A DNA stretch of 64,000 nucleotides. Source: a phage. Shown here piece by piece: positions 1,867 through 56,390 of this stretch. Position numbers and translations under genes: made by a program. The notes under the pieces were generated by a model, which worked only from the letters and a program-made list of their open reading frames with translations, ran no database searches and was not told the origin of the DNA. Numbering within the stretch: the stretch's first letter is position 1; each line of letters starts with the position of its first letter. The stretch is taken from sequence record PZ386977.1. One strand, written 5' to 3'.

Positions 1867-3849
1867 ATGTCACTTCTCTCTCCGGGCGTTGAGCTCAAAG
1901 AAACTACCGTACAGAGTACTGTAGTTAATAACTCCACTGGTACTGCTGCCCTGGCCGGAAAATTCCAATGGGGACCTGCATTCCAGATTAAACAAATCAC
2001 TGATGAAGTTGCATTAGTTGATATGTTTGGTACTCCTAATACGGATACAGCAGATTATTTCATGTCTGCTATGAACTTCCTTCAATATGGTAATGACCTT
2101 CGTGTTGTACGCGCAGTTGACCGTGATACTGCTAAGAACTCATCTCCTGTAGCAGGCAATATTGAATTCACAATCTCTGCTACTGGTAGTAACTATGCAG
2201 TTGGTGATAAAATTATCGTTAAGTATTTGACCGAAACTGTTGAAGCAGATGGTTATGTCACTTCAGTTGATGTCGATGGTAAAATTCTTAACATTTATAT
2301 CCCAACCGGTAAAATTATTGCTCGTGCAAAAGAAATTAATGAATATCCGGCATTGGGTTCTAACTGGACCGCCGAAGTTGCCAGTTCTTCTTCTGGACTT
2401 TCTGGCGTTATTACAATTGGTTCTATCGTAACCGATTCGGGTATTCTGTTAACTGAAGTTGAAACTTCTGAAGAAGCTATTACTTCTCTAACTTTCCAAG
2501 AATCTATTAAAAAATATGGTGTCCCAGGCGTAGTTGCTCTTTATCCTGGTGAACTTGGCGACCAGCTCGAAATTGAAATCGTATCTAAAGCAGACTATGA
2601 CAAAGGTGCTTCAGCCCAGTTAAAAATTTATCCTGATGGTGGTACTCGTGCATCTACGGCTAAAGCAATCTTTGGATATGGCCCACAGTCTGATGACCAA
2701 TATGCAATTATAGTTCGTCGTAACGATGCTGTAGTTCAGAGCGTAGTTCTTTCTACTAAACGTGGTGAACGCGATATTTATGGTAGTAATATCTTTATTG
2801 ATGATTTCTTTGCTAAAGGTGCAAGCAATTATATTTTCGCTACTGCACAAGGTTGGCCAAAAGGTTTCTCTGGCGTAATCAAACTGGGTGGTGGCTTATC
2901 ATCTAATGAAACGGTTGACGCTGGTGATTTAATGGAAGCTTGGGATTTGTTTGCTGACCGCGAATCTGTTAATGCGCAGTTGTTTATTGCAGGTTCTTGT
3001 GCAGGTGAATCTTTAGAAGTTGCTTCTACAGTTCAGAAACATGTTGTAGCAATTGGTGATTCTCGCCAAGATTGTTTGGTTCTTTGCTCACCGCCACGTG
3101 CAACTATAGTCGGTATTCCTGTTAATCGTGCAGTTGATAATCTGGTTGATTGGCGTACTGCGTCAGGAACTTACACTGATAATAACTTTAATGTAAGTTC
3201 TACTTATGCTGCTATTGACGGTAACTATAAATATCAATATGACAAATATAATGACGTGAATCGTTGGGTTCCATTAGCTGCTGATATCGCTGGTCTTTGT
3301 GCTCGTACAGACAATATTTCTCAGCCTTGGATGTCTCCAGCCGGTTATAACCGTGGACAAATTCTTAACGTTATTAAGCTTGCAATTGAAACTCGCCAAG
3401 CGCAGCGTGATCGTTTGTATCAGGAAGCTATTAACCCTGTTACTGGTACCGGTGGTGATGGGTATGTTCTGTACGGTGATAAAACTGCCACTTCTGTTCC
3501 TTCACCATTTGACCGTATTAACGTTCGTCGTTTGTTCAATATGGTTAAAACGAACATTGGTTCAGCATCCAAATATCGCCTGTTTGAATTGAACAACGCA
3601 TTTACCCGTTCTTCTTTCCGTACAGAGACTTCTCAATATCTACAGGGTATTAAAGCTCTCGGTGGTGTATATAACTTTAAAGTTGTTTGTGATACTACCA
3701 ATAACACCCCAGCAGTTATCGACCGTAATGAATTTGTAGCTACTTTCTACTTACAACCAGCCCGCTCGATAAATTATATTACGTTGAACTTTGTAGCAAC
3801 AGCAACTGGTGCCGATTTCGACGAACTAATTGGTGCTGTAGGTGCCTAA
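1867..3849 (+). CDS. 18: tail sheath protein (gp18)
   Basis: 660-aa ORF, size and position match T4 gp18; late promoter and RBS upstream. Confidence 0.93.
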   Translation: MSLLSPGVELKETTVQSTVVNNSTGTAALAGKFQWGPAFQIKQITDEVALVDMFGTPNTDTADYFMSAMNFLQYGNDLRVVRAVDRDTAKNSSPVAGNIEFTISATGSNYAVGDKIIVKYLTETVEADGYVTSVDVDGKILNIYIPTGKIIARAKEINEYPALGSNWTAEVASSSSGLSGVITIGSIVTDSGILLTEVETSEEAITSLTFQESIKKYGVPGVVALYPGELGDQLEIEIVSKADYDKGASAQLKIYPDGGTRASTAKAIFGYGPQSDDQYAIIVRRNDAVVQSVVLSTKRGERDIYGSNIFIDDFFAKGASNYIFATAQGWPKGFSGVIKLGGGLSSNETVDAGDLMEAWDLFADRESVNAQLFIAGSCAGESLEVASTVQKHVVAIGDSRQDCLVLCSPPRATIVGIPVNRAVDNLVDWRTASGTYTDNNFNVSSTYAAIDGNYKYQYDKYNDVNRWVPLAADIAGLCARTDNISQPWMSPAGYNRGQILNVIKLAIETRQAQRDRLYQEAINPVTGTGGDGYVLYGDKTATSVPSPFDRINVRRLFNMVKTNIGSASKYRLFELNNAFTRSSFRTETSQYLQGIKALGGVYNFKVVCDTTNNTPAVIDRNEFVATFYLQPARSINYITLNFVATATGADFDELIGAVGA

Positions 3850-3881
3850 TAAGACGCCTGATGGGCTATTTCGGTAGCCCA

Positions 3882-3889
3882 TATAAATA
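3882..3889 (+). promoter_or_regulatory. late promoter TATAAATA upstream of gene 19, preceded by stem-loop 3863..3880
   Basis: TATAAATA motif; hairpin GGGCTA-TTTCGG-TAGCCC immediately 5' of it. Confidence 0.65.
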
Positions 3890-3961
3890 TACTATATCGT
3901 TTAAAAATTAATTCTATGGGCATCTGGTTAATCCTAAGCCCATATTACTACAGAGGCTAAT

Positions 3962-4537: not shown

Positions 4538-6109
4538 ATGAAATTTAATATCTTAAGTTTGTTTGCTCCATGGGCAAAAATGGACGAACGTGATTACAAA
4601 GACCAAGAAAAAGAAAATTTAGAATCGATCACCACACCAAAATTAGACGACGGCGCGAAAGAATACGAAGTATCTGAAAATGAAGCACAGCAAACATATA
4701 ATGCTATGTTTCAGAGAATGTTCGGTAGCCAAGAACCAGGGCTCAAATCAACCCGTGAATTAATCGATACGTATCGAAATTTGATGACGAACTATGAAGT
4801 GGATAATGCAGTCTCTGAAATAGTTTCTGATGCTATCGTATATGAAGATGATACAGAAGTCGTTTCTATAAATTTAGACAACACAAAATTTAGTCCAAAT
4901 ATAAAATCAATGATGTTGGATGAATTTAACGAAGTGTTGAATCATTTATCTTTCCAACGTAAAGGTTCAGACCATTTTAGGCGTTGGTATGTAGATTCTC
5001 GAATTTTCTTCCATAAAATTATTGACCCTAAACGCCCTAAAGAAGGTATTAAAGAGCTTCGTCGTTTAGACCCACGTCAAGTTCAATATGTCCGTGAAGT
5101 TATTACAACCACTGAAGCCGGTGTTAAAATAGTCAAGGGTTATAAAGAATATTTCATTTATGACACATCACACGAATCTTATGCTTGTGATGGTCGCATA
5201 TATGAAGCTGGCACAAAAATAAAAATCCCTAAAGCCGCGATTGTTTATGCCCATTCTGGTTTAGTTGATTGTTGTGGTAAAAATATCATTGGTTATTTGC
5301 ATCGGGCTATTAAGCCGGCGAACCAATTAAAACTTCTTGAAGATGCCGTCGTAATTTATCGTATTACTCGTGCTCCCGATCGTCGTGTATGGTACGTTGA
5401 TACAGGTAATATGCCTTCAAGAAAAGCAGCAGAACATATGCAACATGTTATGAATACGATGAAAAACCGTATTGCATATGATGCTACTACAGGCAAGATT
5501 AAAAACCAACAGCATATTATGTCGATGACCGAAGATTATTGGTTACAACGACGTGATGGTAAAGCAGTAACAGAAGTTGACACATTACCAGGTGCAGATA
5601 ATACCGGAAATATGGAAGATGTACGTTGGTTCCGTAATGCGCTTTATATGGCTTTACGTATTCCTATTACCCGTATTCCAAGTGACCAAGGTGGTATACA
5701 GTTTGATGCTGGTACTTCTATTACACGAGATGAATTGTCATTTGGTAAATTTATTCGTGAGCTGCAACATAAATTTGAAGAGATATTCCTAGACCCGCTT
5801 AAAACTAATTTAATTCTTAAAGGAATTATTACAGAAGATGAGTGGAATGATGAAATAAATAATATTAAGATAAAATTTCATCGGGATAGTTATTTCTCGG
5901 AATTAAAGGATGCTGAGATTCTGGAGCGTCGCATTAATATGCTTCAGATGGCCGAACCATTTATTGGTAAATATATTTCTCACAGAACAGCTATGAAAGA
6001 TATTCTTCAGATGTCTGACGAGGAAATTGAACAAGAGGCTAAGCAAATTGAAGAAGAGTCGAAAGAGGCTCGTTTCCAAGACCCCGACCAAGAACAAGAG
6101 GATTTTTAA
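4538..6109 (+). CDS. 20: portal vertex protein (gp20)
   Basis: 523-aa ORF; position between tube gene and prohead core genes as in T4. Confidence 0.93.
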
Positions 6110-8274: not shown

Positions 8275-9843
8275 ATGACTACTATCAAAACTAAAGCTCA
8301 GCTCGTAGACAAATGGAAAGAACTGCTGGAAGGTGAAGGCCTGCCGGAAATCGCTAATAGCAAGCAGGCTATTATCGCTAAAATCTTCGAAAACCAGGAA
8401 AAAGATTTCGAAGTATCCCCTGAATATAAAGACGAGAAAATCGCTCAGGCATTTGGTTCTTTCTTGACCGAAGCTGAAATTGGTGGTGACCACGGTTATA
8501 ATGCTCAGAACATCGCAGCAGGTCAAACCTCTGGTGCAGTAACCCAAATTGGGCCGGCAGTTATGGGTATGGTTCGTCGTGCTATTCCTAATCTGATCGC
8601 TTTTGATATTTGTGGTGTTCAGCCTATGAACAGCCCTACCGGTCAGGTATTTGCTCTCCGTGCAGTATATGGTAAAGACCCTATCGCTGCTGGCGCTAAA
8701 GAAGCTTTCCATCCGATGTATGCCCCAGACGCGATGTTCTCTGGACAGGGTGCTGCTAAGAAATTCCCAGCTCTGGCTGCTGACACTACTACTGTTGTAG
8801 GTGATATCTATACTCACTTCTTCCAAGAAACTGGTACTGTATATCTGCAAGCTTCTGCTATCGTAACACTTGATTCTGGTGCAACTGATGCAGCTAAATT
8901 AGATGCAGAAGTTAAGAAACAAATGGAAGCTGGTGCACTGGTAGAAATCGCTGAAGGTATGGCTACTTCTATCGCTGAACTCCAGGAAGGTTTCAACGGT
9001 TCTACCGACAACCCGTGGAACGAAATGGGCTTCCGTATCGATAAACAAGTTATCGAAGCTAAATCTCGCCAGCTGAAAGCTGCTTACTCCATCGAATTGG
9101 CACAAGACCTCCGTGCAGTACACGGTATGGATGCTGATGCTGAACTGAGCGGTATTCTGGCTACAGAAATTATGCTAGAAATCAACCGTGAAGTTGTTGA
9201 TTGGATTAACTACTCAGCACAGGTTGGTAAATCTGGTATGACACTGACTCCTGGTTCTAAAGCTGGTGTATTTGACTTCCAGGACCCGATTGATATCCGT
9301 GGTGCTCGTTGGGCCGGTGAAAGCTTTAAATCTCTGTTGTTCCAGATTGATAAAGAAGCAGTTGAAATTGCTCGTCAAACCGGTCGTGGTGAAGGTAACT
9401 TCATTATCGCTTCCCGTAACGTAGTTAACGTACTGGCTTCAGTTGATACTGGTATTTCTTACGCTGCACAAGGTCTGGCTTCTGGTTTTAATACCGACAC
9501 TACTAAGTCTGTATTTGCCGGTGTACTTGGTGGTAAATACCGCGTATACATCGACCAGTATGCTAAACAGGATTATTTCACCGTTGGTTACAAAGGCGCT
9601 AACGAAATGGATGCAGGTATTTACTATGCTCCTTATGTTGCACTTACCCCACTGCGTGGTTCCGATCCTAAGAACTTCCAGCCGGTAATGGGCTTTAAAA
9701 CTCGTTACGGTATCGGTGTTAACCCGTTTGCTGAAAGTTCCCTGCAGGCTCCAGGTGCTCGCATCCAGTCCGGTATGCCGTCTATCCTGAACAGCCTTGG
9801 TAAGAACGCTTACTTCCGCCGTGTATATGTAAAAGGCATCTAA
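8275..9843 (+). CDS. 23: major capsid protein (gp23)
   Basis: 522-aa ORF, T4 gp23 size and position; strongly biased codon usage typical of a highly expressed late gene. Confidence 0.95.
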   Translation: MTTIKTKAQLVDKWKELLEGEGLPEIANSKQAIIAKIFENQEKDFEVSPEYKDEKIAQAFGSFLTEAEIGGDHGYNAQNIAAGQTSGAVTQIGPAVMGMVRRAIPNLIAFDICGVQPMNSPTGQVFALRAVYGKDPIAAGAKEAFHPMYAPDAMFSGQGAAKKFPALAADTTTVVGDIYTHFFQETGTVYLQASAIVTLDSGATDAAKLDAEVKKQMEAGALVEIAEGMATSIAELQEGFNGSTDNPWNEMGFRIDKQVIEAKSRQLKAAYSIELAQDLRAVHGMDADAELSGILATEIMLEINREVVDWINYSAQVGKSGMTLTPGSKAGVFDFQDPIDIRGARWAGESFKSLLFQIDKEAVEIARQTGRGEGNFIIASRNVVNVLASVDTGISYAAQGLASGFNTDTTKSVFAGVLGGKYRVYIDQYAKQDYFTVGYKGANEMDAGIYYAPYVALTPLRGSDPKNFQPVMGFKTRYGIGVNPFAESSLQAPGARIQSGMPSILNSLGKNAYFRRVYVKGI

Positions 9844-9867
9844 TCTTAATTGATTAAATCTTATTTT

Positions 9868-9893
9868 GGGAGACTTCGGTCTCCCATTTTTGG
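9868..9893 (+). terminator. intrinsic terminator after gene 23 (GGGAGAC-UUCG-GUCUCCC hairpin plus U-run)
   Basis: perfect 7-bp GC-rich stem, UUCG tetraloop, followed by ATTTTTGG. Confidence 0.85.
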
Positions 9894-9895
9894 TT

Positions 9896-10165
9896 TTATT
9901 TCTGTGCAATTTTGATGTAAGTTTTCAAAATATTTTGCCAATTAGGCATACCTTCTTGGACATATGCCGGAGAACCATCTTTGTTTTTGAATGATGCAAG
10001 TTTATCAGTGGCCCAATAACCTTTAGCTCGAGCTTCAGAATCAACTTTCATCCATACTTTGTTGAAGGCATTACCATTAACTTTTGCACCATATTTTTCT
10101 ACTAACTTAACTGCTTCAGCTTCCAGAACTTTTAAAGTATCTCGTAAGAAACGTGCTTTAGTCAT
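9896..10165 (-). CDS. hypothetical protein (89 aa), antisense accessory gene in the 23-24 junction
   Basis: ORF with RBS GGAG and its own early promoter; no recognisable motif. Confidence 0.6.
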   Translation of the reverse strand: MTKARFLRDTLKVLEAEAVKLVEKYGAKVNGNAFNKVWMKVDSEARAKGYWATDKLASFKNKDGSPAYVQEGMPNWQNILKTYIKIAQK

Positions 10166-10194
10166 TTTGTTTACTCCTCTGTAGTTGATAAGTC

Positions 10195-10225
10195 TATAGT
10201 ATCACATACCAAATACGTTGTAAAC
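10195..10225 (-). promoter_or_regulatory. T4-type early promoter (GTTTAC -35 / TACTATA -10) for the 89-aa ORF
   Basis: minus-strand GTTTAC and TACTATAG elements with about 17-nt spacing. Confidence 0.6.
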
Positions 10226-10231
10226 AATCTT

Positions 10232-10239
10232 TATAAATA
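10232..10239 (+). promoter_or_regulatory. late promoter TATAAATA upstream of gene 24
   Basis: TATAAATA 27 nt upstream of ATG with RBS AAGGAAA. Confidence 0.65.
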
Positions 10240-12701: not shown

Positions 12702-12953
12702 TTAGAACTTGATTTCTATCCAGTGCCCATCACGTTGGTCGTGATTAATTTTGTACTGAAAGCCATTATCACGTAACCACTGCCCGACTTGCTCGGTGAT
12801 AGTTAAATCATTCTTTGATGGATAGTACGTGAATTGTGTCTGGCCTTTATCAGCGGCTTTCTCTGCCATCACAGAGAAGTTAGTAATAAAATCACTCAAC
12901 AAATTAGCTTTAGTGGCCAGCGCCCTTTCTCTTAATTCCTGTGCAAAACTCAT
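12702..12953 (-). CDS. hypothetical protein (83 aa), positional counterpart of T4 24.2
   Basis: ORF overlapping the next by ATGA. Confidence 0.55.
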   Translation of the reverse strand: MSFAQELRERALATKANLLSDFITNFSVMAEKAADKGQTQFTYYPSKNDLTITEQVGQWLRDNGFQYKINHDQRDGHWIEIKF

Positions 12954-13150
12954 TTCTTCACCTTTTTGTTAATAAAACGTTTACGGTATACAACTTTTTC
13001 TTTTGCTTTAAACTTTGACCGAGCTGTCTCGGCTTTAGTCCATAGTAATCCAACTTCTTTAGGTTGTAAACCGATTTTTTGAGCAATTTCTACGAATGAA
13101 AATCCTGCCTCATGTAATGTATAAACTTCAACTTCAGCTCTCATAATCAA
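12950..13150 (-). CDS. hypothetical small protein (66 aa) with helix-turn-helix-like segment and basic tail
   Basis: segment GFSFVEIAQKIGLQPKEVG resembles an HTH; positional counterpart of T4 24.3. Confidence 0.5.
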   Translation of the reverse strand: MIMRAEVEVYTLHEAGFSFVEIAQKIGLQPKEVGLLWTKAETARSKFKAKEKVVYRKRFINKKVKK

Positions 13151-33143: not shown

Positions 33144-33184
33144 TTTGTTCTCCAGGTTGTTTTATTGATTAGGTGGTACAAGTC

Positions 33185-33214
33185 TATAGTAACACATCCT
33201 ACAGGAGAGTAAAC
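33185..33214 (-). promoter_or_regulatory. T4-type early promoter
   Basis: minus-strand GTTTAC -35 and TACTATAG -10. Confidence 0.55.
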
Positions 33215-33244: not shown

Positions 33245-33268
33245 ACAAAAGGGAGACCGAAGTCTCCC
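33245..33268 (-). terminator. intrinsic terminator (GGGAGAC-UUCG-GUCUCCC plus U4)
   Basis: identical stem to the terminators at 9868 and 48035. Confidence 0.8.
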
Positions 33269-47945: not shown

Positions 47946-48030
47946 TTTGATTTCCTCATGTTGTTGATAAGTCTATATTAACACATCCAGGGAAGAAGTA
48001 AACAACTTTTTCGGCAATTTACAGATACTC

Positions 48031-48052: not shown

Positions 48053-48058
48053 AATTTA

Positions 48059-56357: not shown

Positions 56358-56382
56358 GGGAGACTTCGGTCTCCCATTTTTG
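56358..56382 (+). terminator. intrinsic terminator after gene 35 (GGGAGAC-UUCG-GUCUCCC plus U5)
   Basis: hairpin then ATTTTTG. Confidence 0.8.
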
Positions 56383-56390
56383 TATAAATA
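56383..56390 (+). promoter_or_regulatory. late promoter TATAAATA upstream of gene 36
   Basis: TATAAATA immediately after the terminator, RBS AAGGAGA. Confidence 0.65.

Follow-up and report, generated by a model that had tools for sequence, protein, structure and literature searches.

The locus described here has its closest described counterparts in the PeSL (promoter-early stem-loop) cassettes of T4-type phages, in which an ORFan gene is accompanied by the PeSL itself: a terminator stem-loop directly upstream of an early promoter, both on the same strand (PMC2839356, PMC4122927). Generation of circular recombination intermediates, or mini-circles, is a mark of such cassettes, and their early promoters conform to the PST/T4 consensus TTTACW-N17-TAYWAT (PMC4122927). 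A second counterpart is the segD locus of phage T4, where a gene for a free-standing GIY-YIG homing endonuclease lies between genes 23 and 24; a review of the mobile elements of T4, published in 2010, reports that a promoter specific to segD could not be identified (PMC2988022). Small early proteins with which T-even phages reprogram their host provide a third point of comparison: Alc, AsiA, and Gp94/Emp, the last from phage AV110, whose early proteins were screened in 2026 through 45 genes picked by their homology to those of T4 (bioRxiv 10.64898/2026.09.14.751387).

The phage considered here is a T4-like coliphage of the genus Mosigvirus, to which AV110 also belongs, and ‘the window’ refers throughout to the whole 64,000-nt stretch of PZ386977.1 that was analysed. 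Between its genes for the major capsid protein and the capsid vertex protein lies a small minus-strand open reading frame, an annotated hypothetical gene in a cassette of an already described kind. The best explanation, and one that we hold to be probable, is that this ORF is a true gene, accessory and non-essential, housed in a compact early cassette, and that its product likely binds a macromolecule of the host or of its defences. Four other explanations—that the transcript acts as antisense RNA, that the protein is a cofactor of SegD, that it is a head protein, or that the ORF arose by chance—are less likely. The original prediction, made from the sequence alone, is confirmed in what it observed and supported in what it made of the observation.

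With PeSL cassettes the locus shares a small gene without known function that is framed by a conserved stem-loop and a strong early promoter of sigma-70-like type, a cargo that varies among close relatives, breakpoints that fall at the regulatory modules, and a position at a plastic spot in a conserved core. Its promoter fits the published PST/T4 consensus exactly, and its stem-loop is identical to those of the canonical PeSLs at 48054–47963 and 33268–33180 of the window. The arrangement differs, however. The ORF promoter abuts the gene 24 late promoter, with no stem-loop upstream, and the one stem-loop present, the terminator of gene 23, lies downstream of the ORF and is inverted. Because the ORF has the promoter on one side and the stem-loop on the other, instead of a single composite upstream, we do not call the locus a canonical PeSL.

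With the segD locus of T4 it shares the site, the antisense orientation, the flanking late promoter and terminator, and a homologous promoter-like element upstream (TTTACA-N17-TATTAT in T4). The cargo is unrelated, instead: 89 aa rather than 223 aa, with no nuclease motif and no sign that the ORF promotes its own spread. Like Alc, AsiA and Gp94/Emp, the product is a protein of ~10 kDa, predicted to be early and probably dispensable, with a fold that matches none of known function; unlike them as a group, in that it resembles none of the three in sequence or structure.

The ORF and its setting

The features of the locus, in window coordinates, are as follows.

8275..9843, plus strand: gene 23 (major capsid protein), late, flanking; from the ORF list and protein comparison
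9867..9886, both strands: stem-loop TGGGAGAC-TTCG-GTCTCCCA; from a terminator scan and folding
9896..10165, minus strand: the ORF, 89 codons, with the stop codon counted in the span; member of PHROG 6003
10174..10177, minus strand: Shine-Dalgarno sequence GGAG, 8 nt 5' of the ATG of the ORF; also the left breakpoint of the allele exchange
10196..10225, minus strand: T4-type sigma-70 early promoter; -35 GTTTAC at 10225–10220, TG at 10204–10203, -10 TACTAT at 10201–10196
10232..10239, plus strand: gene 24 late promoter TATAAATA; invariant in the promoter alignment and so labeled in OL960577
10267..11550, plus strand: gene 24 (capsid vertex protein), late, flanking; from the ORF list and protein comparison

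The ORF starts with ATG and encodes 89 aa (MTKARFLRDTLKVLEAEAVKLVEKYG...). Its place on the minus strand between genes 23 and 24 had been given originally with coordinates that the program's ORF list reproduces to the base, and the GGAG ribosome-binding site credited to it is indeed there, at 10177–10174, 8 nt before the ATG. The minus-strand sequence 5' of the ORF reads ttatttataaagattGTTTACAacgtatttggtatgTGaTACTATagacttatcaactacagaGGAGtaaacaaaATG. The 501 bases around the ORF are 100% identical in Escherichia coli O157 typing phages 3, 6 and 13, and 99.4–99.8% identical in many further Mosigvirus genomes. GenBank already carries the ORF as a hypothetical protein, which is also what every named member of its family is called in a collection of 15 billion proteins, and a search of the literature found no paper that names phrog_6003.

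The early promoter

Scanning with the sigma-70 consensus places TTTACA-17-TACTAT, with a TG motif, at 10224..10196 of the minus strand; the spacer of 17 nt is counted from TTTACA, and with the preceding G the promoter reads GTTTAC...TACTATAG. Written out as GTTTAC-aacgtatttggtat-gtga-TACTAT, it is an exact match to TTTACW-N17-TAYWAT. The early-promoter consensus of Miller 2003, as quoted in OL960577, is GTTTAC(N14)gtggTAttaT. Transcription is predicted to start near 10189–10191. TTTACW-N17-TAYWAT occurs nine times in the window, against 0.30 expected from shuffled sequences, and the minus strand, which is the early one, has eight of them. The -10 element of the ORF promoter and the initial transcribed sequence, TACTATAGACTTATCAAC, are nearly identical at the minus-strand promoters 47963–47986 and 33180–33197.

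When six loci are aligned—the window, a metagenomic relative, three Dhakaviruses and T4—the -35, TG and -10 elements are kept, and the 17-nt spacer has diverged. Hexamers that persist while the spacer between them is scrambled are the pattern expected from a functional promoter. The ribosome-binding site, too, is kept in the alignment of the upstream regions of the ORF's relatives. Record OL960577 (vB_EcoM_SA35RD) independently labels the promoter as ‘similar to phage T4 early promoter’; the same record marks the ORF, assigns TATAAATA to gene 24 as its T4 late promoter, and places terminators on either strand. Read by eye, the upstream sequence on the ORF's own strand contains neither a MotA box (TGCTT) nor the late promoter TATAAATA.

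Consensus match, nine occurrences against 0.3 expected, conservation of the hexamers and the OL960577 annotation together bear out the T4-type early promoter that had been attributed to the ORF. By these comparisons the promoter is conserved and belongs to the phage's own early type, and the ORF would be transcribed early, antisense to the late structural genes. Unmodified host RNA polymerase would be expected to begin its transcription in the first minutes of infection.

Another exact match to the early-promoter consensus, at 13042–13070 on the minus strand, lies within a small ORF (12950–13150, minus strand) and upstream of a second (12702–12953, minus strand); it could act as a promoter internal to the first.

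The stem-loop and the late promoter

The stem-loop, with its core GGGAGAC-TTCG-GTCTCCC at 9868–9885, presents a different face to each strand. On the plus strand it is followed by a T-run and folds, at -16.1 kcal/mol, as a strong intrinsic terminator for gene 23. On the minus strand it is a stable hairpin 3' of the ORF (-13.5 kcal/mol, CGAA loop), and what follows is not a U-tract but AAAAUAAG. Termination at this hairpin is probably leaky on the strand of the ORF. Since the U-tract is missing, some of the ORF transcripts would continue, antisense, into the 3' end of gene 23. At the other end of the cassette, the late promoter of gene 24 stands back to back with the early promoter of the ORF, 6 nt from its -35 element.

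This read-through is one of the features that could be taken to mean that the RNA itself is functional, damping or timing capsid expression by running antisense into gene 23 in the manner of the classical ‘anti-late RNA’, with the ORF incidental. The cassette runs antisense to both gene 23 and gene 24, the hairpin followed by AAAAUAAG makes read-through plausible, and the same promoter arrangement occurs in T4 with a different cargo. What such a role leaves without a reason is the protein: its sequence is under purifying selection, its ribosome-binding site is kept, and homologues 30–40% identical to it in unrelated phages run in the same direction as their neighbours, with no late gene opposite. 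Many T4-like phages, moreover, have no cassette at this junction at all. We consider a functional antisense RNA very improbable as the explanation, and return to the ORF as a protein-coding accessory gene.

The 18-mer of the stem-loop is found again at 33251, 48035 and 56358 of the window, and a search of Rfam gave no match above threshold. Two of these occurrences belong to canonical PeSL composites on the minus strand, 48054–47963 and 33268–33180, each consisting of GGGAGAC-TTCG-GTCTCCC with its T-run, ~30–40 nt, an early promoter GTTTAC...TA(A/C)TATAGACTT, and then the start of a gene. The third, at 56358–56390 on the plus strand, is an identical stem-loop with a late promoter TATAAATA 7 nt behind it and a late gene on either side; the ‘empty’ 23–24 junction of other T4-like phages is made up of this very composite.

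Conservation

The ORF is found at full length in 240 phage records by tblastn. Roughly 121 of these carry it at 80% identity or more (the Mosigvirus type), and the other ~119, mostly Dhakavirus, at roughly 31–37% identity, as in orf173 of JS98; the two types are about 35% identical to one another. Homologues occupy the same place between genes 23 and 24, in the same orientation, in JS98, 04086, ABTNLsp5 and two metagenomic Dhakavirus-like contigs. Ratios of dN/dS, calculated by the Nei–Gojobori method, are 0.06–0.14 among copies of the Dhakavirus type, and 0.12 for the ORF against a metagenomic allele that is 61% identical. The protein belongs to PHROG 6003 (function unknown), which it matches with E=2.9e-45 over residues 1–89, aligned to positions 1–90 of the 90 in the profile.

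More distant relatives are few. An exhaustive HMM search of 1.8 billion representatives yields ~7 true clusters, and with two word-index searches that used family alignments the total comes to ~20 small clusters, all of them stand-alone proteins of 83–93 aa. Homologues are not confined to T4-like phages; they are also present in Acinetobacter phage ABPH49 (Vequintavirinae) and in phage-like contigs of ~35–140 kb. In such contigs, rV5-like and other, they sit inside long arrays of small ORFs on the same strand, most of which have no Pfam match; another lies directly after the tail-tip genes of its contig. Identities between the ORF and these homologues in unrelated phages are 30–40%.

Three candidate homologues were set aside: P0017 (BIG2-like repeats) and P0020, multi-repeat proteins whose matches are sums of weak repeated hits, and P0021, which is probably a chimeric assembly. 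A 90-aa metagenomic homologue, P0006, bears the JGI name ‘NADPH-dependent curcumin reductase CurA’; this is an annotation error, since neither the size of the protein nor its family fits the name.

Given its small size, and annotations that never go beyond ‘hypothetical protein’, the ORF might be suspected of being a chance frame in an AT-rich spacer, and not a gene at all. Comparative data effectively refute this. The frame is kept at 35% identity, with dN/dS of 0.06–0.14, and recurs in unrelated phages; ribosome-binding site and promoter are conserved; and the predicted fold is confident. Lack of conservation was the first weakness for which the original prediction allowed, and the frame proves to be intact, at full length, in more than 200 phage genomes, with dN/dS well below 1. 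Judged by these comparisons, the ORF is a real small phage gene, under purifying selection and horizontally mobile.

Probable dispensability

Real though it is, the gene can probably be dispensed with. Most T4-like genera lack it. In phage mogra (MN850579) a 1-nt deletion in a run of five A's, at codons 23–24, splits the ORF (1388–1656, numbering of the extract) into pieces of 38 and 51 aa; this split was verified in mogra and in a metagenomic contig, and the mogra lesion, lying as it does in an A5 run, could in part reflect sequencing error. The truncated 51-aa product is found on eight contigs, metagenomes included, and phage 310Ecol104PP has a truncated copy of the ORF, too. The frameshifted copy in mogra suggests that the ORF is probably non-essential.

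The broken frame of mogra bears on another possibility, namely that the product is a minor head or assembly protein that acts in capsid morphogenesis. Its location between gene 23 and gene 24 invites this idea, as does a match, at chance level (E=0.13), to a PHROG family of ‘internal virion protein’. Yet the gene lies on the opposite strand, behind a sigma-70 early promoter and without the late promoter TATAAATA on its own strand; most T4-like phages with near-identical heads do without it, T4 and RB27 included; mogra is viable with the frame broken; and homologues elsewhere are found outside head modules. A role in the head is highly improbable on this evidence, and an early accessory role fits better.

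The protein and what it might do

The product has a mass of 10.1 kDa and a pI of about 9.8 (8.0–9.7 in its homologues), and no obvious signal peptide or membrane segment when the sequence is read by eye. AlphaFold2, from an alignment of 11 sequences, models it with confidence (pLDDT 87, pTM 0.73) as a helix (3–25), a second helix (31–48), a beta hairpin (56–70) and a third helix (76–88). M1, K3, F6, G31, N32, N35 and Q70 are invariant over all of the divergent members of the family, and L11, L14, L21, N30, A45, S57, G64 and I79 are nearly so. The conserved polar positions comprise a loop motif, N-G-N-x-x-N, that starts helix 2, and S57 and Q70 in the hairpin; together these plausibly form a binding surface.

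The absence of a visible nuclease motif, noted at the outset, is upheld by domain searches and by profile comparison. No Pfam, NCBIfam or PADLOC domain was found in the protein; GIY-YIG and HNH domains, in particular, are absent according to Pfam and NCBIfam; and hhalign gives kinship with T4 SegD a probability of 1.4%, which we reject. NCBIfam and PADLOC return nothing for the window protein. For the JS98 allele and the distant homologue P0018 these two collections together give matches at chance level only (E=0.012–0.089); in PADLOC the JS98 allele has no match, and P0018 a chance-level one at E=0.012. The Pfam family DUF4859 comes up at E=0.003, with 17.9 bits against a cut-off of 22.6, and we regard this sub-threshold hit as chance because only two of 11 family members repeat it, alongside equally weak matches to unrelated families. 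Sequence matches in the PDB, to the BRCT domain of RFC1 and to de novo helical bundles, were likewise discarded, with E-values of 0.075 or worse for the single protein and for the family profile.

Structure comparison is no more revealing. The fold, although confidently predicted, matches none of known function: Foldseek finds nothing in the PDB at E<=0.001, a structure search of BFVD retrieves only the protein's own family, and there is no significant similarity to solved or predicted viral structures of known function. Some low-probability Foldseek matches to winged-helix proteins were set aside, the helices being far too long for a helix-turn-helix.

The protein, then, shows no catalytic signature, and none of its relatives has a known function. 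Most likely, to judge by the class of gene, this soluble, basic protein of ~10 kDa would act stoichiometrically, by binding a macromolecule of the host or of a host defence. The roles originally suggested for it, in host takeover, anti-defence or regulation, are conjectural. Were it to turn out a host-takeover or anti-defence factor, that repertoire would gain a new fold, and host range might be influenced. Members of Mosigvirus and Dhakavirus are often put forward for use against E. coli in therapy and biocontrol, and nearly all carry the ORF. Homology-guided screens miss it because T4 lacks it, and for the same reason—it has no T4 homologue—it falls outside the 45 genes of AV110 that were screened.

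The 23–24 junction among relatives

The junction between genes 23 and 24 had been called a hotspot of plasticity, and comparison across T4-like genomes bears this out, in five states:

State i: empty; RB27, Karamvirus EnC15, Kagamiyamavirus EcS1, Klebsiella phage Roth20, RB43
State ii: promoter–segD–stem-loop; T4
State iii: promoter–ORF (Mosigvirus type)–stem-loop; this window
State iv: promoter–ORF (Dhakavirus type)–stem-loop; JS98
State v: promoter–ORF (Dhakavirus type)–segD–stem-loop; 38 records

T4 has segD at the junction, as was stated originally, and has it on the opposite strand as well. The four empty junctions that were read, those of RB27, EnC15, EcS1 and Roth20, are ~80–100 bp long and contain a stem-loop and then the late promoter, only. 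The early cassette is therefore placed between those two elements. Reversed between the gene 23 stem-loop and the gene 24 late promoter, it would be read in the order T4-type sigma-70 early promoter, GGAG ribosome-binding site, 89-codon ORF.

State v crosses the boundaries of genera. It is found in Dhakaviruses (IME08, 04086), in Mosigviruses (LF82-8, AV116, JK45), and in F2, which is filed under Tequatrovirus. Gp24 of LF82-8 and of F2 is 98–99.8% identical to that of the window, yet both phages carry the Dhakavirus-type ORF, with segD. Compared with these two, the window is homologous without a break as far as 10174, the GGAG, and homology returns at 9899, at the stop codon, just before the stem-loop. 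The breaks at 10174 and 9899 imply that the unit exchanged is exactly the coding cargo, for which the conserved promoter and stem-loop, the latter on the right-hand side, serve as homology arms. On this alignment, two alleles that are only 35% identical have been exchanged precisely between ribosome-binding site and stop codon. The cargo is far more diverged than its flanks, as gp23 makes plain: that of the window is 95% identical to gp23 of T4 and 84% to that of JS98, against 35% between the ORFs of the window and JS98.

Two peculiarities of neighbouring genes came to light. JS98 (335–2899, numbering of the extract) and Dhakavirus-like genomes carry gene 24 as a tandem pair, 24a and 24b, in contrast to the single copy of Mosigvirus and T4. 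In Yersinia phage phiR1-RT (HE956709) a hypothetical minus-strand CDS of 504 aa is annotated directly upstream of gene 24 (1–1118, numbering of the extract), where gene 23 would be expected; the strand may have been mis-annotated, or the insert may be a different one.

Linkage to segD

In 38 phage records a segD-like gene for a GIY-YIG homing endonuclease comes 3 nt after the Dhakavirus-type ORF, the pair sharing one promoter (LF82-8, 1171–2100; F2, 1168–2097; 04086, 3001–3942; all in the numbering of the extracts). ORF and segD are thus not simple alternatives at the junction. Each also occurs without the other: ~200 genomes, the window among them, have the ORF without segD, and T4 has segD without the ORF.

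In the relatives that carry segD, identity with the window drops to 94% and then to 76% over the last ~170 nt before the insertion (9731–9899 of the window), a stretch made up of the gene 23 3' end and the spacer that leads to the stem-loop; further upstream, gene 23 of LF82-8 is 97–100% identical. This diverged stretch may be a co-conversion tract associated with homing, or it may be an altered target site for SegD. We infer that homing by segD carried the Dhakavirus-type allele into Mosigvirus genomes.

So close a tandem, 3 nt apart behind one promoter in 38 genomes, could also mean that the protein works with SegD—as cofactor, regulator or protector of the target site—and is part of the mobile element, and the ~170-nt stretch in segD-carrying Mosigviruses, resembling a co-conversion tract, is in keeping with this. 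The ~200 genomes that keep the ORF without segD speak against a partnership, however, as does T4, with segD and no ORF. Among the called genes near the distant homologues there is no Pfam endonuclease domain, and the probability of 1.4% from profile comparison offers no kinship with SegD. The tandem is explained more simply by a homing endonuclease gene that inserted beside a resident gene and dragged it along. A working partnership with SegD is thus improbable, and an accessory gene that travels with its neighbour is the reading we retain.

That reading can be carried further, tentatively. The product might be a new early effector with an orphan fold, for anti-defence or host takeover, with the two alleles, 35% identical and in the same fold register, reflecting an arms race, and segD sweeping one of them from Dhakavirus into Mosigvirus by co-conversion. 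Taken as a whole this is possible, but we think it doubtful. What the locus does offer is a compact natural case in which an accessory gene is swapped with promoter and terminator as homology arms, perhaps with the help of a homing endonuclease, and this inside a block of capsid genes that is otherwise nearly invariant.

Two observations concern segD itself. In phage 04086 the 223-aa segD ORF has been left unannotated. And in T4 (NC_000866, minus strand) segD is preceded by TTTACA-N17-TATTAT, at 5254–5282 and 1431–1459 in two extracts; this is an exact match to the T4/PST consensus, the only one in 6 kb (0.02 expected), and it lies in register with the promoter of the ORF.
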